Origin: a virus
Virus record (IMG/VR): IMGVR_UViG_3300046821_000076
Location: 8,335-72,334 of that record
DNA length: 64,000 nucleotides
Strand: one strand, 5' to 3'
How positions within the stretch are numbered: the stretch's first letter is position 1; each line of letters begins with the position of its first letter. The position numbers and the translations under genes were made by a program. Below are positions 1,190-63,323 of the stretch, in pieces. Below the pieces are notes generated by a model, which ran no database searches, was not told the DNA's origin, and saw only the letters and a list, made by a program, of their open reading frames with translations.

Positions 1190-2158
1190 ATGTATTCAAA
1201 CCAAACTAACTTACCTACAGCTATAGCTGTATGGCTTGCACACGATACGTATGATAGAGCTGAAGCAGGCCTATCTGCTACAAGCTTACTTAAACCAATA
1301 AGACAGGTACTACTCTCTCAGCGTGTTCCTGAAGGTGAAGGTATTACTGACGTTAGTGGTTTAATTAAGTCACGTATTGGTACTGCAATCCATGATGCTA
1401 TTGAACGTGCCTGGCTGAGTGATCGCTTAGAAGCTACTCTTAAAAGTCTAGGTGCTTCAGATAAAACAGTATCAAGAGTTAAGATTAATCCTGAAACTAT
1501 TGAAGGTCCTTGTTACCCTATCTATCTTGAGCTTAGAACAAGCAAAGATATTTTAGGTGTAAAGGTTACAGGTAAGTTTGACTTCATTGATAATGGCAAA
1601 CTGATTGACTTTAAAACTACAAGTACCTTTGCATACACTTCAGGTAATAAAGATGAAGACTACATTATGCAAGGTAGTATTTATCGTTGGCTTAATCCTG
1701 AAATCATTACAGATGAGTTCATGGATATTTGCTTCATCTTTACTGATTGGCAGAAGAACAGATATTTGAGTGCTCCTCAAAGCTACCCTTCAAGTCAGAT
1801 TATCTCTCGCAGTTTTAAGCTGCATTCTGCAGCCTTTGTGCAGTCATACGTTGAAGAACGTGTTCGTACTTTAATTAAACTGCAGGACGTTCATGAAGTA
1901 GATTTACCCTTATGTACTGATAAAGACCTATGGCGTAAACCAGATACTTTTAAGTATTATAAGAACCCCCAAAAACAAAGCAAATCAACTGCTAACTTTG
2001 ACAACCTTAGTGATGCTAACAGACGCTTCTTAGATGATGGCGCTGTAGGCTTAGTTAAGACAGTTAAAGGAGGAGTTTCCGCGTGTCTGTACTGTAGCGC
2101 ATTCACCGTATGTACTCAGAAAGACAGACTTATTGAGTCAGGTGAGTTAAAGATTTAA
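1190..2158 (+). CDS. PD-(D/E)XK Cas4-like exonuclease (N4 gp42-like)
   Basis: GTAIHDAIE, GKFD...DFKTT nuclease motifs, C-terminal CLYC...C cluster; directly upstream of primase as in N4-like phages. Confidence 0.8.
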   Translation: MYSNQTNLPTAIAVWLAHDTYDRAEAGLSATSLLKPIRQVLLSQRVPEGEGITDVSGLIKSRIGTAIHDAIERAWLSDRLEATLKSLGASDKTVSRVKINPETIEGPCYPIYLELRTSKDILGVKVTGKFDFIDNGKLIDFKTTSTFAYTSGNKDEDYIMQGSIYRWLNPEIITDEFMDICFIFTDWQKNRYLSAPQSYPSSQIISRSFKLHSAAFVQSYVEERVRTLIKLQDVHEVDLPLCTDKDLWRKPDTFKYYKNPQKQSKSTANFDNLSDANRRFLDDGAVGLVKTVKGGVSACLYCSAFTVCTQKDRLIESGELKI

Positions 2159-2191: not shown

Positions 2192-2408
2192 ATGAAAAGT
2201 TTTGATCAAATGCCCTATCATCCAATGACAGAGCAGATCGTAGACATCTTATGCGAGCGTTCTCAGAACAAACAGAGAATGTTCTTTCGCATTGCATGTC
2301 AATATTATTGGGGAGTACTCGCTTCCCAGATGCATACGAAGGTAGTAGGTTGGGGTAGCACTCCAATTCCACTGAATATTTACGCATTAAACCTAGCAGT
2401 ATCAGGGT
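2192..2408 (+). CDS. DNA primase (N4 gp43-like), exon 1
   Basis: Ends NLAVSG+T; joining to 3360 restores the P-loop SGFGKG and gives a 713-aa product. Confidence 0.85.
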
Positions 2409-2593
2409 AAACAACCATGCCCCTATAGGTAGTGATACCTATTAGCAAACCTCCCTAATTCGGTGAAACTCTGACCATTAAGTTGAAGACAATACCGAGC
2501 AAGGCATTAGCCGTGTGTAACGACTATCGAAAAGCAGCTTAGCTGAACTGAGTAGAGTAAGACCCAAGTGGGTTTGAAATGGGAGGATGCTTA

Positions 2594-2622
2594 TTTACTT
2601 ACCACAACGTTAGTGCTATATT
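2594..2622 (+). promoter_or_regulatory. Sigma70-like internal promoter for intron HNH gene
   Basis: TTTACT-17 nt-TATATT with extended -10 TG, ~30 nt before GAGGA RBS/ATG 2654. Confidence 0.55.
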
Positions 2623-2653
2623 TAAATCTAGCTATAACATTGAGGAAAGTGCA

Positions 2654-3268
2654 ATGACAGTTTGGAAAGATATTTTAGGGTATGAAGGTTTATACCAAGT
2701 AAGTGATGAAGGTTCTGTAAAGGCACTAGCCAGATCAGTAACCAACAAGAACGGTAGACTACAACAGTATCCTGAAAGGGTTTTAAAAACGGATAAAAGT
2801 GTAATGAGTAATTCTACATACCATAGAGTTACTTTATGTAAGAACCACGTTACTTCTAGATTTTTAGTACATCGTTTAGTAGCAGAAGCTTTTATACCTA
2901 ATCCGTTAAATAAACCAATGATTAACCACATAGATAATGATGCAGAGAATAATCAGGTGTCTAACATAGAATGGGTAACTCATTCAGAGAATATGATACA
3001 TGCCCAAAAACAGGGTAGATTATTTCACGCACAGTCTAAGGCAGGTAAGGTAGCAGGTGCTATAAGCACAGCTAATTTACATAAACTAGCTCAAGACAGC
3101 GTAGGCTTATTATTTAATTCCTGGCAAGTTATTGATCCAGACTTATCCTATAGAGCAGGTAAAGCATACATACTTTGTAAGTGTGTTTGCGGTAAACAGG
3201 CTCAAATAGATTTTGCAAGATTACGTAGATTAGATGCTACGTCATGTAAGTCATGCGCTAAGAAGTAA
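2654..3268 (+). CDS. Intron-encoded NUMOD4-HNH homing endonuclease
   Basis: WKDILGYEGLYQVSDEG (NUMOD4), VHRLVAEAF..NHIDND..NN..N HNH core, C-terminal CxCG..CxxC module; GAGGA RBS before ATG 2654. Confidence 0.92.
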   Translation: MTVWKDILGYEGLYQVSDEGSVKALARSVTNKNGRLQQYPERVLKTDKSVMSNSTYHRVTLCKNHVTSRFLVHRLVAEAFIPNPLNKPMINHIDNDAENNQVSNIEWVTHSENMIHAQKQGRLFHAQSKAGKVAGAISTANLHKLAQDSVGLLFNSWQVIDPDLSYRAGKAYILCKCVCGKQAQIDFARLRRLDATSCKSCAKK

Positions 3269-3359
3269 ATAAGTATAAGAGTTAGTCTGATCCCTGTAGA
3301 AATACAGGGCGGGTGCTTTAACGTACCGCATACGCATAACGAACGTATGGGACAATATG

Positions 3360-5284
3360 TCGGTAAAGGTTTCTCTACAGGGCTTATTGAATCAGAAGTT
3401 ATTAATAAGTTTCGTGCTAACTTCATGGATAACACTTTCCATCTACAAGCAGAAACCAATATCAATGCACTAGCTAAACATAAAGCTCTACATAAAGGCA
3501 CAGACGTTACAGATGAAACTGAGCGCCTGATTAAAGAGTTTAATGCAGCAGGTTCGCTAATGTTCTCATTTGATGATGCAACTATGGCAGCAGTTAAACA
3601 GATGCGCCATAAGCTTATCATTGCAGGTTCAGGTGCGGTTAACTTGCAGGTAGATGAAGTAGGTACAAAGCTTGTAAACCAAGAAGATGTACTAGCAGGT
3701 TTCTTAGAACTGTATGACACAGGTAAGATGAAAGATAAGCTCATTAAGAATGGGCAAGAAAATCAACGTGTAGAACGTATTGAGGGACAGACTCCAGCAA
3801 ACATGCTTCTATTTGGTACACCAAGTAAGGTAATGGATGGAGGTAAAACTCAAGCGTATCTCGAAGCTATGCTAGAGATGGGATATGCAAGACGTTGTCT
3901 ATTTGGGTACTCAACCCATTTAGGAAAAGATACTACTTCTGATGCACAAACATTAGTGCAGTTACTTACTAATAGTAAGTCAGATGCAGTACTAAACAAC
4001 ATTGCTACTCATCTTGAACAGTTAGCTGATTATCCTAACCTGTCTAAAGAAATCACAATCCAAGAAGCTGAAGCAGTTTACTTAATGGAATATAAAATTA
4101 ACTGTTCAGAACGAGCAGAGCATTTTAAAGACCATGAGTTTAGTCTTAAAGCTGAGATGGACCATCGCTACTTTAAAGTACTCAAACTAGCAGGTTGCTA
4201 CGCATTCTTAGACTACAGTCCAGTTATCACTGTTGATCACTTGGATTACGCTATACGTATCGTAGAAGATTCAGGCGAAGACTTTAAACGTCTAATGACC
4301 CCTGAATACAACTATGAAAAGTTAGCAAAGTATTTAGCTGCTTTAAACCAACCAGTTACTCTACCTGATCTTGAGTATGCTCTACCTTACTTCCGTGGAA
4401 GCAGACAACAGAAAGAGTATTTGATTGAGTACGCTACTGCTTGGGGATATAAAAACAATGTTGTCATTAAGAAATCTTTTGACAATAACATTATGTTCTT
4501 AGCTGCAGACAGCTTAAAGCAAACCAATATAGATGAGATGATTATGTCTATCTCTACTCGTCTGTCTGAAGGTTACGAAGCTAAACGCGTACCATTTGAT
4601 CAGCTACACTTACTTGCTACAAACAATGAGTATCATTGGTGTAGTCACCACTTCCAAGGAGATATTCGTAGAGCTGAAAACGCATTACCTCTATTCAATA
4701 TGATTGTTCTAGATATTGATGGGACAATGCCACTTGGCGTAGCTCAAGACTTACTTAAACAGTATCGAGCATTCTTCTATACAACGAAGTCTCATACTGA
4801 AGAAGTACATCGCTATCGTATTATCTTACCGATCAACTACGAAGTAGAAATGGATCGTGAAGAATACAATGCGTGTATGGATGCAGTACTTCAAACCTTA
4901 CCGTTTGAATGTGATCCAGCAACTAAAGATATTGCACGTAAGTGGATGTGTAACGAAGGAGAGTACTTCTACCAAGAAGGCGAGCTATTCGATATCTTAC
5001 CGTTCATTCCAAATACTTCTCGAAGTGATGAACGTCAGCAAGCATTTCAAAACCAATCAGACTTAGACAATCTTGAGCGTTGGGTTCTAAACCATACAGG
5101 CGCAGGAAATCGTAACGATCAGATTTATAAGTATGCAATGGTACTTGCAGATGCAGGTAAATCATTAGAGCAGATTGGAGAGTTAGCACGTAACTTAAAC
5201 AATAAGCTAAGTGATCGTCTTTCTGATGAAGAGATAATGAACACAGTACTCAAATCTGTAAGTAATAAGATGAATCGAAAATAG
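3360..5284 (+). CDS. DNA primase (N4 gp43-like), exon 2
   Basis: GKG P-loop half, VDEVG Walker B-like, VLDIDG and YTTKSH..RYRII AEP-type primase motifs, C-terminal GNRND PriCT-like domain. Confidence 0.88.
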
Positions 5285-5345: not shown

Positions 5346-6077
5346 ATGTTAGACCAACAAAATGACTTTATGGTTTTAATTGGAGGAGAATCAGGTGCAG
5401 GTAAGACAACCTCATTGATGAATATCCGAGACCCTGAAGGTGTCTTATATCTTAATTGCGATGCAGGGAAACGCATCACTTTTAGACATAAGTTTAATAC
5501 TGTAACAGTTACTCATCCTATGCAAGTACTTGAAGGTATCAAAGCAGCTAATGGTTCTGAAAAGATTCATACAGTCATCATTGATACTTTATCGTTCTTG
5601 ATGGAGATGTACGAAACTCAGATTGTATTACGTGCAGATGATACTCGATCAGCTTGGGGAGATTACGCACAGTACCTCAAGACATTGATGCAAGAGTACA
5701 TTGCAGCAAGCACTAAGAACATTATTATCTTATCTCACATTGCAGACTACATTGATGAGTCTGCAGGGACTAAGAAAGTTCAAGTACCTCTTAAAGGGGC
5801 TTCAGCTAAAGTAGGTGTAGAAGCTTACTTATCTGTAGTAGTGAACGCTAAGAAAGTACCTATTGTTGAACTTGAGAAATACCCTTCAGAGTATTTACAT
5901 ATTACGGAAGAAGAACGTATTCAAGGATTCAAACACGTATTCCAAACCAAGGTTACAGCTAAGACAACTTCTGAGCGTATCCGTGGTCCAATTGGAATGT
6001 TTAAAGCAAATGAAGTATATATGGATAATGACGTACAGTTGTTATTGGATATTCTTCATGAGTACTACGAAGCGTAA
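5346..6077 (+). CDS. P-loop ATPase, Sak4/AAA_24-like (N4 gp44-like)
   Basis: GESGAGKT Walker A, VIIDT Walker B; synteny between primase and SSB. Confidence 0.85.
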   Translation: MLDQQNDFMVLIGGESGAGKTTSLMNIRDPEGVLYLNCDAGKRITFRHKFNTVTVTHPMQVLEGIKAANGSEKIHTVIIDTLSFLMEMYETQIVLRADDTRSAWGDYAQYLKTLMQEYIAASTKNIIILSHIADYIDESAGTKKVQVPLKGASAKVGVEAYLSVVVNAKKVPIVELEKYPSEYLHITEEERIQGFKHVFQTKVTAKTTSERIRGPIGMFKANEVYMDNDVQLLLDILHEYYEA

Positions 6078-6588
6078 GCGCAAAGACTTTACCTGGGCAG
6101 ATTTAGATGAACTGCTCAGGTATGATCCTCACACCGGTAAGCTTATTTGGCGAACCAACAAACACTCTAAATCGGTAGTACCTAACTCCATAGCTGGATG
6201 TATTAACAAAGCTACAGGATATAGAACAATTACTATTTTTGGGGTATCTTATGCGGCTCACCATGTAGCATGGTTTCTTCATTACAAGAAGTGGTCTGAA
6301 CACCAATTAGACCATATAAACCATATACGTAGTGATAACCGTATCGCTAATCTACGTGAAGTGTCTATAGCTGAGAATGCTAGAAACAGGAAGCGTAGAG
6401 ATAAAACCACAACAGGCGAGCATGGGATATGGTATGACAAGCAACGTAATAAATACGTAGCTGAGATTTCTATGGACCGTAAGCGCGTTTACTTGAAACG
6501 CTTTGATGATATCGAACAGGCAGTAGCTGAAAGAGAGTCAAAGTTAATTGAATTAGGATTCCATGAAAACCATGGGTCTAAACATTAA
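6058..6588 (+). CDS. Free-standing HNH endonuclease with AP2-like C-terminal domain
   Basis: LRYDPHTGKLIW, LDHINHIRSDNRIANL HNH motif, GIWYDKQRNKYVAEI AP2-like; likely start ATG 6058 overlapping upstream gene. Confidence 0.9.
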   Translation: MSTTKRKRKDFTWADLDELLRYDPHTGKLIWRTNKHSKSVVPNSIAGCINKATGYRTITIFGVSYAAHHVAWFLHYKKWSEHQLDHINHIRSDNRIANLREVSIAENARNRKRRDKTTTGEHGIWYDKQRNKYVAEISMDRKRVYLKRFDDIEQAVAERESKLIELGFHENHGSKH

Positions 6589-6600
6589 GGAATACATTTC

Positions 6601-7302
6601 ATGTCATTATTTGGTCAAGGCTACAACGATAAAGCAATCCCAGTAACTGATAAACAAAAACGTACAGTAGATTCAGGTGTATACCAAGGCACTGTTAAAA
6701 ATGCGTTTATTGGTAAGTCATCAGGAGGTGCTACTTCAGTATCGTTAGAAGTTAAACTGGATTCAGGCAAAACTATCTTTGAAACCATTTACGTTACTAA
6801 CAAGCAAGGTAGTAACACTTACGAAAAAGAGGGTGTTATTGGTTACTTACCAGGTTTCTTAACTGTAAACCAAATTGCTCTATTCGCTACAGGTAAAGAC
6901 TTGTACGAATTAGAACCTGAACTAGAAGAACGTATTGTTAAACAGTATGATTCTAAAGCAGGTAAGCAAGTAGACAAGCCTGCTATGGTTATCGTACCTC
7001 TATTAGAACAGCCTATCCTGGTAGCTATTAAAGAAGTACGTGAAAACAAAACCAAAGCAGGTGATGGTGCTAAGCGTATTACGCTTGCAGAAGATCGTGT
7101 ATATAACATGATTGATAAAGTATTCCATCCTTCTACTCTCCATACACAAGCAGAGCTTGAACAAGGTAAAGAAGCTGCTTACCTTGAATCATGGAAAAAA
7201 GATAACGATGGTAAGTTAGATGACCGCTACAAATCACTAGAGTCTACTAACTCAACAACAGTATCTGCTCCATCATCATCTGGTTTATTCAAAGGTCTTT
7301 AA
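6601..7302 (+). CDS. Single-stranded DNA-binding protein (N4 gp45-like)
   Basis: VDSGVY, ETIYVTNKQG, YLPGF motifs, C-terminal GLF; synteny. Confidence 0.8.
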   Translation: MSLFGQGYNDKAIPVTDKQKRTVDSGVYQGTVKNAFIGKSSGGATSVSLEVKLDSGKTIFETIYVTNKQGSNTYEKEGVIGYLPGFLTVNQIALFATGKDLYELEPELEERIVKQYDSKAGKQVDKPAMVIVPLLEQPILVAIKEVRENKTKAGDGAKRITLAEDRVYNMIDKVFHPSTLHTQAELEQGKEAAYLESWKKDNDGKLDDRYKSLESTNSTTVSAPSSSGLFKGL

Positions 7303-7860: not shown

Positions 7861-8368
7861 TCCTAGCTTTAGACATCTAGGTATAGCTATTGGTACTATG
7901 GATTGTGATACAGGGATACTCACAGTAAACCATATCGATACAGTCCATACCGTACCTAACCCAAACAAGAAAGTCCCAAACTCTACATGGGATATTTCGC
8001 AAGCAAAACTTTTATACACAGCTATTCAGGAATATACACTTGACGCTGATGTGGTGTGTATAGAAGTTCCTTATGGAAGCCAAGATGTTAAGGCAGCAGT
8101 AGGTAGGGGAATCTGTCTAGGTCTAATATCTACCATCCAATGTCCTAACATTTTCTTGGTCACTCCTCAGTCAGTAAAGAAAGTACTAGGCAATCCTAAA
8201 GCTACTAAGAAAGACTCAGTAGCTTGGGCTAGTACCACCCACCCAGAAGCTTCTTGGCATAAGCAAAGAGGTCGCGTAACTACAGAAGCTAATGAACATT
8301 CTGCAGACGCCTTGGCAGCTATATATGCAGCAGCTTCACAACATAACTTTAAATCTCTAAAGGAATAA
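7832..8368 (+). CDS. RuvC-like Holliday junction resolvase
   Basis: VSLDPSFRHLG, CIEVP, EHSADALA catalytic motifs; start placed at ATG 7832. Confidence 0.85.
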   Translation: MKTLKIVSLDPSFRHLGIAIGTMDCDTGILTVNHIDTVHTVPNPNKKVPNSTWDISQAKLLYTAIQEYTLDADVVCIEVPYGSQDVKAAVGRGICLGLISTIQCPNIFLVTPQSVKKVLGNPKATKKDSVAWASTTHPEASWHKQRGRVTTEANEHSADALAAIYAAASQHNFKSLKE

Positions 8369-48291: not shown

Positions 48292-49002
48292 ATGGTATCG
48301 CATATTAAAGATATTACAGGTATTAAATTCGGATCGCTTACTGCTATTAAATTAGCTTATGTTAAGAACAGACGGACTTATTGGGAGTATAGCTGCGTAT
48401 GCGGTAAAACTCACATTGCACGTGCTAGTACTGTAACTTATGAGGTAACTCGCAAAAACGATCCTGAATTACCATCATGCGGATGTATAGACGTAGCTAG
48501 AAAAACTAAACATGGTTTTCATAAAACTAATGATTTACACCCTGCCTATATAGCCTATAGAAATATGATGGCTAGATGCTACAACCCTAATGACACTGGC
48601 TATAAACGGTATGGAGCAGTAGGGGTAACTGTAGCAGACTGTTGGAAAGGTAACCCTGAAGCTTTTGTTAAATGGTCTCTTGAAAATGGATGGGATAAAA
48701 ACCTACACATTGATAAAGATATTAAATGTAAAGCCATGGGGATCTACCCTCATATATACAGTCCTGATACCTGTACTTGGACTACTGCTAAACTTAATGT
48801 AGCAGAAGCCACGAATAGAACTAATTACGGCAAACGTCCTAACATCAAGCTAAGCCAAGAAGAAGTAGATGAGATTCTTCATCTCTACTCCAGTGGAGAG
48901 ATTACTAACCAATCTGAGCTTGCTAGAATGTACGGAGTAACCCCAAGTTCTATATGTAGATTGATACCACTAGAATTAAATAAACGTAACAAGCTGATTT
49001 AA
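48292..49002 (+). CDS. Free-standing HNH-type homing endonuclease with C-terminal HTH
   Basis: FGSLT..CVCG..SCGC, YRNMMARCYNPN..YKRYG, HIDKD..YSPDTCTW, QSELARMYGVTPSSI HTH. Confidence 0.85.
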   Translation: MVSHIKDITGIKFGSLTAIKLAYVKNRRTYWEYSCVCGKTHIARASTVTYEVTRKNDPELPSCGCIDVARKTKHGFHKTNDLHPAYIAYRNMMARCYNPNDTGYKRYGAVGVTVADCWKGNPEAFVKWSLENGWDKNLHIDKDIKCKAMGIYPHIYSPDTCTWTTAKLNVAEATNRTNYGKRPNIKLSQEEVDEILHLYSSGEITNQSELARMYGVTPSSICRLIPLELNKRNKLI

Positions 49003-51757: not shown

Positions 51758-52969
51758 ATGAAACGTATTATTCCAACACAAGAACAGCAAGAAGTTCTAT
51801 CAAGAACATTGACTCATATCCTTATTCGTCCTGATAACGCTTTCTACGCATCTCTAGCATTAGGTGCTGAAACTTATTGGTCAAACGATATTCCTACAGC
51901 AGCTACCAACGGTAAAGACCTTGTCTTTAATCCTCAGTGGTTTACCTCTTTAAACAAAGAAGAACGTATTGGGTTAATTCTACATGAGTTAATGCACATG
52001 GTTTATCACCATACTATTCGTATCGGTAATCGCGATCCTGAGCTATGGAACGTAGCAGGGGATCATGTAATTAATACCGAGCTTAAGAAGAGTGGTTACA
52101 CACTTCCTAAAGGAGGTTGTTGTGATATGCGTTTTCAGGGTATGGAAACAGAAGAGGTATACAACATCCTCTGGGACGAAGAACAACAACAACCAGGAAA
52201 ACACAAAAACAACATGCCTGACTTATTACTCCCAGGAGAAGATGATTCAGATTCTCAAGGTCAATCTGCAGGAGAAAAAAGCCAAGGAGGGGATAGTGAA
52301 GGTAATATCCCAACTCCTTCTAAAGAAGAGATTGAACAGCACATCAAAGAACAATTAGTTCAAGCTGTACAATCTGCTCAACTGAAAGGACAAGCAGGAA
52401 ATATCCCTGGGAACATCGTACGAGATTTACAAAAGCTATTACAGCCTAAGTTACCTTGGAAACAGATTCTACGTAAGTTTCTATTCTCTATGAATAAGAC
52501 AGATTATTCATGGACTAAACCAAACAGACGATATATCCATCAAGGGATTATCTTACCTAGTCTTCATGGAGAATCATTAGGGCAAATTGATTTTGCTATT
52601 GATACTTCAGGCTCTGTAAGCATAGCTGACTTCAACCGTTTCATCAGTGAGATTGCTTATGTATTTAAGCAGTTTAAACCAGACGGTATAGGTGTATATC
52701 AATTCGATCACATCCTACAGTCTACAGACAAGGTAGCTACTCTTAATGACTTCATGAAATTAGAATTCAAAGGAGGAGGGGGTACTAATATCGAACCTGT
52801 ACTTGAGTACTATAAAGCTCAAAGTAAAGGTAAAGCGTTAATTGTACTTACTGATGGATACTTCCACCACACTGCTGAAATGAATCCAAACAAACCTGTT
52901 ATCTGGCTTATCTACGATAACCCTAACTGGCAACCTCCATTTGGTAAAGCAGTCTACTTTGACAACTAA
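51758..52969 (+). CDS. Metallopeptidase-like + vWA domain protein (DUF2201 / N4 gp25-like)
   Basis: TAATNG, HELMH, WNVAGD; IDTSGS MIDAS, GGGT, LTDG. Confidence 0.9.
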   Translation: MKRIIPTQEQQEVLSRTLTHILIRPDNAFYASLALGAETYWSNDIPTAATNGKDLVFNPQWFTSLNKEERIGLILHELMHMVYHHTIRIGNRDPELWNVAGDHVINTELKKSGYTLPKGGCCDMRFQGMETEEVYNILWDEEQQQPGKHKNNMPDLLLPGEDDSDSQGQSAGEKSQGGDSEGNIPTPSKEEIEQHIKEQLVQAVQSAQLKGQAGNIPGNIVRDLQKLLQPKLPWKQILRKFLFSMNKTDYSWTKPNRRYIHQGIILPSLHGESLGQIDFAIDTSGSVSIADFNRFISEIAYVFKQFKPDGIGVYQFDHILQSTDKVATLNDFMKLEFKGGGGTNIEPVLEYYKAQSKGKALIVLTDGYFHHTAEMNPNKPVIWLIYDNPNWQPPFGKAVYFDN

Positions 52970-62729: not shown

Positions 62730-63323
62730 ATGTCTAAAAGTTCTTGGGCTATTTTAGAGATATCAGGAAAATACGCAAAAGTACGTTGTACTTGTGGATA
62801 CACTGCAAAACGTAATACTTATGATATTAAATCAGGCAAATCTGTATGCTGTAAAACATGTTCTTACAGTATGCGTAAAGGCGTACCAATTAATGTAACC
62901 CACGGTTTAGCAGATTCACCTACTATGAATAGTTATGCCGATATGAAAAGAAGATGCTATGACCAAACCCGTAAAGATTATAAAAATTATGGAGGTCGTG
63001 GGATAACGGTACAAAAAGATTGGTTAGAAGGTACTGCTGAACTTTCTGGCTTTTCTTGTTTCGTACGTGATTTAGGTATGCGACCTAGTAAAGATTACCA
63101 ATTAGATCGTAAAGATAATAATGGGAATTATACCAAGGATAACTGTCATTGGGTTACACGTAGTAATAATATGCGTAACAGGCAGGATACTGTAAAAGTA
63201 AATTACAAAGGTAAAGAACATATACTAATAGAGTTATGCGAACAGAAAGGTATTAGCTACAAGAAGGTGTACCAACGTATGCATAAGTATGGTTGGGATG
63301 CGGATAGAGCTATAGATACCTAA
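62730..63323 (+). CDS. Free-standing HNH-type homing endonuclease, antisense to late operon
   Basis: CTCG..CKTC, YADMKRRCY..YKNYGGRGITV, LDRKDNNGNYTKDNCHW..N. Confidence 0.9.
   Translation: MSKSSWAILEISGKYAKVRCTCGYTAKRNTYDIKSGKSVCCKTCSYSMRKGVPINVTHGLADSPTMNSYADMKRRCYDQTRKDYKNYGGRGITVQKDWLEGTAELSGFSCFVRDLGMRPSKDYQLDRKDNNGNYTKDNCHWVTRSNNMRNRQDTVKVNYKGKEHILIELCEQKGISYKKVYQRMHKYGWDADRAIDT

Follow-up and report, generated by a model that had tools for sequence, protein, structure and literature searches.

N4-like phages are known hosts for group I introns, since the N4-like Vibrio phage pVa5 carries one, together with an HNH gene, in its thymidylate synthase gene (td); its authors give an Rfam E-value of 1e-18 for it (PMC5746245). 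For the gp43 homologue of the vibriophages JA-1 and VCO139, which is split by an HNH gene, an intron was suggested by Fouts et al. (2013; PMC3670811). The VCO139 locus consists of an 80-amino-acid (aa) open reading frame (ORF), the HNH gene and a 640-aa ORF; exon 1 ends with SGYG and exon 2 begins with KGHATK. The present analysis concerns the gene of the same family, a gp43/dns-type primase, in a 64-kb stretch of DNA (64,000 nucleotides (nt), positions 8,335 to 72,334 of the 72,334-bp IMG/VR record IMGVR_UViG_3300046821_000076), which is hereafter called the window. The phage is an N4-like podophage, as identified by the virion RNA polymerase gene in the window. Its gp43/dns-type primase-helicase gene very probably contains a mobile group I intron, which occupies 2409-3359. 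The intron of pVa5 resides in a thymidylate synthase gene and reaches the Rfam threshold, whereas that of the window resides in a primase gene and remains below it. An earlier note, made from the letters of this DNA alone, had described the primase as an uncommon site for such an intron. This was overstated, as the suggestion of Fouts et al. concerned the same gene, and the intron is not a first but has a published, unproven precedent. No literature on the splicing of an N4-like phage primase intron was found, with subscription journals and supplements outside the coverage of the search. The finding leaves the knowledge of how group I introns work unchanged.

At this locus, one listed ORF has 72 aa (2192-2410) and another 645 aa (3347-5284) (Table 1). 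PHROG 2135 ("DNA primase," 713 positions) was matched at its positions 1-72 by residues 1-72 of the first ORF (E = 2e-22) and at its positions 73-712 by residues 5-644 of the second (E = 1.3e-253). Exon 1 also matched phrog_27540 ("unknown function," 80 positions), and exon 2 contained a PriCT_1 match (22.5 bits, cut-off of 21.1). The tblastn searches, one per primase piece, yielded 463 and 477 phage records, and in all 40 records that were listed in both tables, the two pieces abutted with zero bases between them. This abutment was read directly in the DNA of the Acinetobacter phages At2 and nACB1. Because the two pieces abut in intronless phages, they form a single gene elsewhere, and 951 nt have been inserted into it in the window. 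The colinearity with intronless gp43 homologues that the earlier note had put forward as a check was thus observed. A search with the 72-aa exon 1 for homologous proteins returned one candidate, too few to count orphan exon-1 ORFs.

The predicted splice junction could be defined to the nucleotide. The apparent stop codon TAA at 2408-2410 is formed by the final T of exon 1 and the first two bases of the intron, and the first four codons of the 645-aa ORF (3347-3358, MGQY) are intron sequence within P9.2 and the tail. The 5' exon of a group I intron ends in U, and T2408 is the sole U at the break that is available as the end of exon 1. Once U2408 is fixed, no terminal G other than G3359 restores the frame without creating a stop. 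A scripted join of T2408 to T3360 and C3361 generated UUC (Phe73) and a 713-aa product that reads NLAVSG-F-GKGFSTG, as the earlier note had proposed. The uninterrupted protein P0001 (713 aa, 97% identical to exon 2) reads GVSGFGKGFSTG across the junction. The 90% cluster to which these proteins belong has 365 members, of which 40 were read and 15 listed; the latter comprised seven uninterrupted 713-aa alleles, three 645-aa proteins (one being that of the window itself), one 72-aa protein and four fragments. Phe73 and the motif SGFGKG were present in all seven listed 713-aa alleles, and both of the other listed 645-aa members begin with MGQYVGKG, which corresponds to the same intron 3' end. In the 26-member family alignment, position 73 is variable (F, Y, or T), with Y or T occurring in more distant relatives.

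Two contigs of run X9 carry GCCGTCAGTGGGT directly before window base 3360. This sequence encodes N-F-A-V-S-G plus a T and matches the intronless alleles P0125 and P0126, so that these contigs fix the insertion point at the nucleotide level in a relative. The junction-like end cannot be counted as spliced RNA, because the RNA label of this run is a guess and intronless DNA alleles exist. In run X9 the intron was covered at a lower depth than the exons, a difference that was set aside because contig depth is uninterpretable. The insert does not qualify as an intein, given the stop codon at its 5' junction (2408-2410) and the different frame in which it is read.

Table 1. Coordinates of the split primase gene, the elements of its putative intron, and other features of the window (positions in the window, except for the VCO139 intron).
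Feature	Position	Strand	Remarks
Primase exon 1	2192-2408	+	72 codons and first base (T) of codon 73; phrog_2135 positions 1-72
Primase exon 2	3360-5284	+	Last two bases of codon 73 to stop; phrog_2135 positions 73-712
Group I intron (very probable), 951 nt	2409-3359	+	IA2-like by P7.1/P7.2 and P9.1/P9.2
P1, 5 bp	2405-2409 / 2418-2422	+	GGGUA/UGCCC; U2408-G2419 splice-site wobble; minimum free energy fold; 5/5 pairs canonical
P2, 7 bp	2425-2442	+	GUGA tetraloop
Core domain closed by P3	2450-2586	+	
P3	2450-2455 / 2581-2586		CCUCCC/GGGAGG
P4	2459-2464 / 2494-2499		
P5, P5a	2470-2475 / 2482-2489		
P6	2500-2505 / 2510-2515		
P7	2522-2526 / 3283-3287		GACUA/UAGUC
P7.1	2535-2538 / 2542-2545		
P7.2	2561-2565 / 2570-2574		
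P8, 14 bp	2587-2600 / 3263-3276	+	Loop holds nuclease gene; 14/14 pairs canonical
NUMOD4 + HNH_3 homing endonuclease ORF (predicted), 204 aa	2654-3268	+	GAGGA at 2642-2646 upstream
3' ribozyme part	3277-3359	+	
J8/7	3277-3282		AAGAGU
P9	3292-3309		GAAA loop
P9.1	3312-3327		
P9.2	3329-3349		UAACGA loop
Omega G	3359		Terminal intron base
PD-(D/E)XK exonuclease gene	1190-2158		Upstream of primase
Sak4-like AAA_24 ATPase gene	5346-6077		Downstream of primase
Free-standing HNH_3 + AP2-domain endonuclease ORF	5863-6588	+	phrog_99, E = 7e-60
Virion RNA polymerase, 4,485 aa	9188-22648	-	
HNH-family ORFs	48292-49002, 62730-63323, 51758-52969	+	phrog_374 twice, phrog_1314 once
VCO139 primase group I-type intron, 1,047 nt	3173-4219 of VCO139 locus (L003)		

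The inserted sequence can be folded into a complete group I core, with the P4-P6 stack, the P3-P8/P7 pseudoknot, and the R and S elements. All 81 proposed pairs, including those of the P3/P7 pseudoknot and P8, were canonical in a script check, which bears out the description of the 951 nt in the earlier note (a U-G splice pair, P3, P7, a 14-bp P8 that encloses the HNH ORF, and a terminal G). Unconstrained minimum free energy folding of the 5' half recovered P1, P2, P3, P4, P5, P6, and P7.2, and that of the 3' part recovered P9, P9.1, and P9.2; the fold energies alone were unremarkable (z of -1.97 and -0.70). The IA2 subgroup is characterized by additional helices, namely P7.1 and P7.2 in the stretch from the 5' strand of P7 to the 3' strand of P3, as well as P9.1 and P9.2, a definition that reportedly goes back to Michel and Westhof in 1990. 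Since P7.1 and P7.2, which show compensatory changes in relatives, as well as P9.1 and P9.2 were all present, the intron was placed with the IA2-type phage introns.

Its 5' core (2409-2605) matched 291 phage records at E ≤ 1 in a blastn search. In all nine records that were fetched, the match lay between the pieces of a split gene or in a gene annotated as joined, and the host genes were those for the terminase TerL, DNA polymerases, NrdA, and peptidoglycan hydrolase. The closest ribozyme relatives were found in Barba19A (terminase gene; Rheinheimera phage), Aes002 (gp43 DNA polymerase gene; Aeromonas phage), and V6Aob (polB; Vibrio phage), with 74-79% identity to the window core over 90-112 nt. 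These introns share the same helices, with compensatory changes, and the block after P7 with P7.1 and P7.2. They differ from that of the window in their host genes, in a short closed P8 without a nuclease gene, and in a J8/7 that reads AAGAUA. The 3' layout of J8/7, P9 with a GAAA loop, P9.1, P9.2 with a UAACGA-type loop, a short tail and G, with P7 following J8/7, was common to the comparators. A covariance model (R1) was built from seven other phage introns, with the window left out. It matched the window at 2445-2590 over the full model length (130.1 bits, E = 7.3e-29), which was the sole match in the 64 kb; this score ranked third among 12 matches and fell within the range of the training sequences. 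R1 had no match in VCO139 (L003) at E ≤ 1 and none in L001 and L002, which are primase loci without an intron.

Covariation was assessed in two alignments. In a MAFFT alignment with the structure derived from the window, 82.0% of the cells could pair, compared to 35.5-40.9% when the partners were slid, and 16 of the 32 pairs varied on both sides. The model-fitted alignment of 12 introns gave 89.8% versus 37.2-44.0%, with 21 of 29 pairs varying on both sides, and its covariation score was reached by none of 500 shuffles. RNAalifold, unaided, found P3 and P4 with compensatory changes.

The R1 model also drew attention to other phages. Barba19A (L004, 1498-1642) and RCIP0053 (L007, 561-686) contain ORF-less group I-type introns with R1 scores of 132.5 and 106 bits, respectively, both of which belonged to the training set; these introns fall below the RF00028 gathering score, and Rfam under-detects this subfamily. 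In the Staphylococcus phage StB12 (L012), a second R1 match outside of the training set (24-152, 88.3 bits) was located upstream of the known one in the same peptidoglycan hydrolase locus, and it is probably a second intron in this gene region. Furthermore, loose ends at 2447, 2519-2522, and 2559 (runs X6, X9, and X15) marked contigs of other organisms whose similarity to the window is confined to the conserved intron core around the R element, P7, and P7.1, beyond which they diverge. These runs were from wastewater and freshwater, and related introns seem to be common in such habitats.

Several results weigh against a functional group I intron at this locus. The Rfam model RF00028 gave 28.1 bits at 3101-3309 (J8/7, P7, and P9) and 11.6 bits at 2403-2587, with a gathering score of 50. 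The whole window had zero Rfam matches at the gathering score, and an E-value scan of it returned nothing at E ≤ 0.1. J8/7 reads AAGAGU, compared to AAGAUA in all nine comparators, and by sequence comparison these two changes hit a near-invariant segment of the predicted catalytic core. P10 looked weak on visual inspection, with no more than 3 bp that are not in register, and no spliced-RNA joints were present in the contigs (Logan) of four runs that were aligned to the window. Both covariation counts are also tilted in favour of the structure, because either the structure was derived from the window or the alignment was fitted to the model. Regarding Rfam, the RF00028 match is split by the 660-nt ORF within P8, and zero matches were found in the phage's own 72-kb record at E ≤ 1. 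The gathering score was also missed by the ORF-bearing VCO139 intron and by two of four comparator loci. Of these four loci, which were the first to be fetched, those of Aes002 and V6Aob reached RF00028 at 73.3 and 70.3 bits, and the other two remained below the cut-off; RF00028 is therefore weak for this intron subfamily even without an ORF. The search with group I models that the earlier note had recommended thus failed with RF00028 and succeeded with R1, and Rfam alone could not have carried the identification.

The J8/7 departures, the weak P10, the low Rfam score, and the four runs' contigs without spliced RNA are also what a decayed intron would show, that is, an element of group I descent whose splicing has been lost or is too poor, so that the primase is broken or in the process of being lost. 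Such decay is improbable considering that both exons are intact, with 97% protein identity to uninterrupted alleles, that all core helices are fully paired, and that the core scores like the introns on which R1 was trained. Moreover, the intron recurs with its 3' end (MGQY) unchanged, both in independent samples and in a minimum of three diverged alleles, and the phage record was judged to be a 93% complete genome. A wastewater contig of run X6, which represents a diverged allele and covers 2390-3391 with 16 differences, has no change in 3263-3359 among the 13 of these differences that were shown. Even less plausible is a gene in pieces, in which a free-standing HNH gene was inserted and the 72-aa and ~640-aa polypeptides cooperate without splicing. 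Some T4-like Aeromonas phages have been described as having a DNA polymerase of this kind; in the Aes002 record, gp43A and gp43B are annotated on either side of a GIY-YIG gene, and the two ORFs of the window have their own stop and start codons. However, the exon 1 stop arises solely from the last T and the AA of the intron, and the ATG at 3347 lacks a Shine-Dalgarno-like sequence and is paired inside P9.2. The break also lies inside the invariant S-G-x-G-K-G loop, which two chains are unlikely to rebuild, and the ~290 non-coding nt that flank the HNH gene make up an entire group I core, for which a free-standing nuclease gene would have no need.

As the record is a metagenome assembly, and intron cores of other organisms occur in the same runs (the loose ends at 2447, 2519-2522, and 2559), the primase could also have been joined to the intron of another phage by the assembler. 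Such a chimera is scarcely credible. Run X2, which belongs to another sample and another study, contains a contig that is identical to the window over 2321-3406 and spans both intron boundaries. The X6 contig contains the diverged allele, although it reaches just 19 letters into exon 1 at the 5' boundary, where the bridging rule asks for 31. On the basis of these X2 and X6 contigs an assembly artefact was excluded, and 645-aa exon-2 ORFs that begin with MGQYVGKG were additionally present on other contigs of 41,013 and 15,252 nt. The group I reading is supported by the colinearity of the exons, Phe73 in all seven listed alleles, the canonical and covarying core, the R1 score, the kinship to introns that pass Rfam, and the HNH gene in P8, and here the earlier note was right. 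The intron is real and well-formed, and it is probably both active and mobile.

The ORF in P8 is, by its domains, a predicted I-HmuI-like NUMOD4-HNH nuclease. It matched the Pfam families NUMOD4 (PF07463, 38.5 bits, cut-off of 23.4) and HNH_3 (PF13392, 34.7 bits, cut-off of 24.8), as well as the PDB entry 1U3E (E = 1.1e-12, aligned residues 4 to 150). Its true start is ATG 2654, and a longer listed ORF from 2579 begins inside P3; its stop codon (3266-3268) is within the 3' strand of P8. 1U3E is I-HmuI, the nicking enzyme of the DNA polymerase intron of Bacillus phage SPO1. Both proteins share the N-terminal WKDI.GYEG.YQVS motif and the HNH core, whereas the C-terminal 50 residues of the window nuclease, with their CxCxC...CxxC cysteines, have no counterpart in 1U3E. 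The SPO1 I-HmuI intron differs from that of the window in its host gene, ribozyme, and target.

We infer splicing, nuclease activity and its target, and homing from these features, and the splicing steps would be those of the standard mechanism of the class. After transcription of the whole primase gene, the internal guide GCCC (2419-2422) would pair with the exon end GGGU, an external guanosine would attack after U2408, and the freed exon 1 would attack after the terminal G3359. Ligation of the exons (GGGU/UCGG) would restore codon 73 (UUC, Phe) in S-G-F-G-K-G and thereby the 713-aa protein. The nuclease gene in the P8 loop appears to carry its own ribosome-binding site. By analogy, when relatives whose primase lacks the intron infect the same cell, the enzyme would cut or nick their alleles close to the conserved motif, and the intron would be copied into these alleles during repair (homing).

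Alleles with and without the intron were nearly identical in some cases. The intron-plus allele P0131 differed from the intron-minus P0124 in 2 of 640 exon-2 residues (counted from G74), and the intron-plus P0133 differed from the intron-minus P0126 in 5 of 640, whereas the three intron-plus alleles differed from each other in 12-17 residues. As both of these pairs are closer than the intron-plus alleles are to each other, the presence of the intron is independent of allele relatedness. Such near-identical intron-plus and intron-minus alleles suggest mobility, and this polymorphism fits either homing or repeated precise loss. It would also fit site-specific cleavage or nicking of the intron-less allele by the nuclease. 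A population that contains both forms, with alleles down to 2 of 640 residues apart, means that homing or loss can be tracked in the wild. Another primase homologue (P0030, 642 aa), which belongs to an Acinetobacter-phage-like clade, begins with M-KGYSTG exactly after G74, and would fit another interruption at the VCO139-type site by an intron that ends in AUG.

The insertion in VCO139, JA-1, and JSF3 affects the same gene family and the same motif coding for S-G-x-G-K-G as that in the window. In phi 1 and 12VC501, which are intronless, both VCO139 pieces are matched along their entire length, and the matches meet precisely at G74/K75. The 1,047-nt gap of the VCO139 type was found in 6 of the 19 records that were listed for both VCO139 pieces (VCO139, JA-1, and JSF3, two each) and in none of the other 13. 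The VCO139-type intron is polymorphic too, as phi 1 and 12VC501 lack the insert and have an exon 2 that is 98.9-99.8% identical. Its RNA is group I-like (33.6 and 23.8 bits with RF00028, and canonical R and S elements), and its HNH gene occupies the same relative place and encodes a protein that is 53% identical over the whole length (69.6% DNA identity over 411 nt). On the other hand, the VCO139 insertion lies between codons G74 and K75, 5 nt downstream of that in the window, which follows the first base of codon 73, and the introns differ in length (1,047 versus 951 nt). The VCO139 ribozyme shares just a 10-nt core element with that of the window, and its HNH ORF continues past the 3' strand of P8 to J8/7 and P7, where it terminates within the conserved GAUAUAGUC. 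Placement of the VCO139 intron at the exact site of the window intron, where its GGGU/GCCC could form the same P1, was tried and rejected, because no 3' G gives an open frame, G74 is replaced, and phi 1 and 12VC501 abut at G74/K75.

There is about an even chance that two unrelated ribozymes invaded the same N4-type primase motif independently, 5 nt apart, with homologous HNH genes in P8, one lineage in freshwater and wastewater phages and the other in the Vibrio cholerae phages VCO139, JA-1, and JSF3. If so, a nuclease gene that recognizes the primase sequence either moved between ribozyme scaffolds or was captured twice, and both nucleases would recognize the same GGGUnnGGUAAAGGU region. The target preference of the nuclease, rather than the ribozyme, would then decide where introns settle. 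Together, the two introns would be a naturally occurring case of the "nuclease first, intron second" route, which is said to be the model of Bonocora and Shub. With a shared target motif, homologous nucleases, and unrelated ribozymes, the two primase introns are a natural pair for studies of nuclease and ribozyme assortment. For annotation, both gene callers and PHROGs list the pieces as separate genes, and the primase is annotated as three separate genes in the VCO139, JA-1, and JSF3 records, as the earlier note had expected of automated annotation. Because of these separate gene calls, and because Rfam misses introns with an ORF in P8, N4-like primase genes can be miscalled as broken.

The earlier note had placed the break inside the P-loop of the primase, and this claim stands at the fold level. 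An AlphaFold model of P0001 was generated with a 26-sequence alignment (mean predicted local distance difference test score (pLDDT) of 79.4). S71, G72, G74, K75, and G76 are invariant in the 26 family members, and the S-G-x-G-K-G motif lies in the model between a strand (64-69) and a helix (75-86). Model residues 11-387 matched the AAA+ ATPase domains of MCM proteins (Z of 13.5-15, root-mean-square deviation of 4.1-5.0 Å, ~250-290 residues). The textbook Walker A motif is GK[ST], whereas the motif here reads GKG, and the loop residues 71-80 have a pLDDT of 57. On this model, the codon that the intron splits encodes the only variable position of a Walker-A-like loop. The family member P0109 matched DUF3987 (29.1 bits). 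Foldseek against the PDB was weak, with one match at E ≤ 0.001 and very low-probability neurotoxin chains that are noise; it also listed the RepB' primase (E = 2.6e-3) and the AEP domain of the S-2L PrimPol (E = 1.2e-2), which we take to correspond to the C-terminal half of the model. A sequence search of the PDB with the primase family profile returned ribosomal protein S17 only, at chance level (E ≥ 0.57). Together with the PriCT-1 match at the C-terminal end of the protein, the gp43/dns-type protein may consist of an MCM-like AAA+ domain, an AEP-like primase domain, and PriCT-1. An MCM-like AAA+ domain N-terminal to an AEP-type primase may be of interest to researchers of replication. The name given to the primase is "putative DNA replication licensing factor" in one phage record and "DNS protein" in several.

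Other genes in the window encode two small N4-type RNA polymerase subunits, a DNA polymerase, a Dda-like helicase, SSB, a portal protein, and a terminase. In the Acinetobacter phages At2 and nACB1, the gene before the primase is similar in size and position to the exonuclease gene of the window, and nACB1 also has an AAA ATPase gene behind the primase, as in the window. A megablast search with 2192-5284 against 50,697 phage records detected no close isolate, and the top tblastn identity to phage records was 57%. The viral contigs searched with exon 2 for related loci yielded one pattern match and zero relatives. No further split genes were present among the window genes checked, and one uninterrupted ORF encodes the 862-aa DNA polymerase. 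The ribonucleotide reductase small subunit (a 217-aa ORF at the start of the window) was considered as a second split gene and rejected, as it is intact (348 aa) with the upstream sequence; no Rfam match was found at this gene. The free-standing endonuclease ORF downstream of the primase overlaps the 3' end of the Sak4-like ATPase gene and ends shortly before the SSB gene (6601-7302); in nACB1, an HNH gene also directly follows the AAA ATPase gene. With three more HNH-family ORFs (Table 1), the window phage is rich in homing-type nuclease genes.

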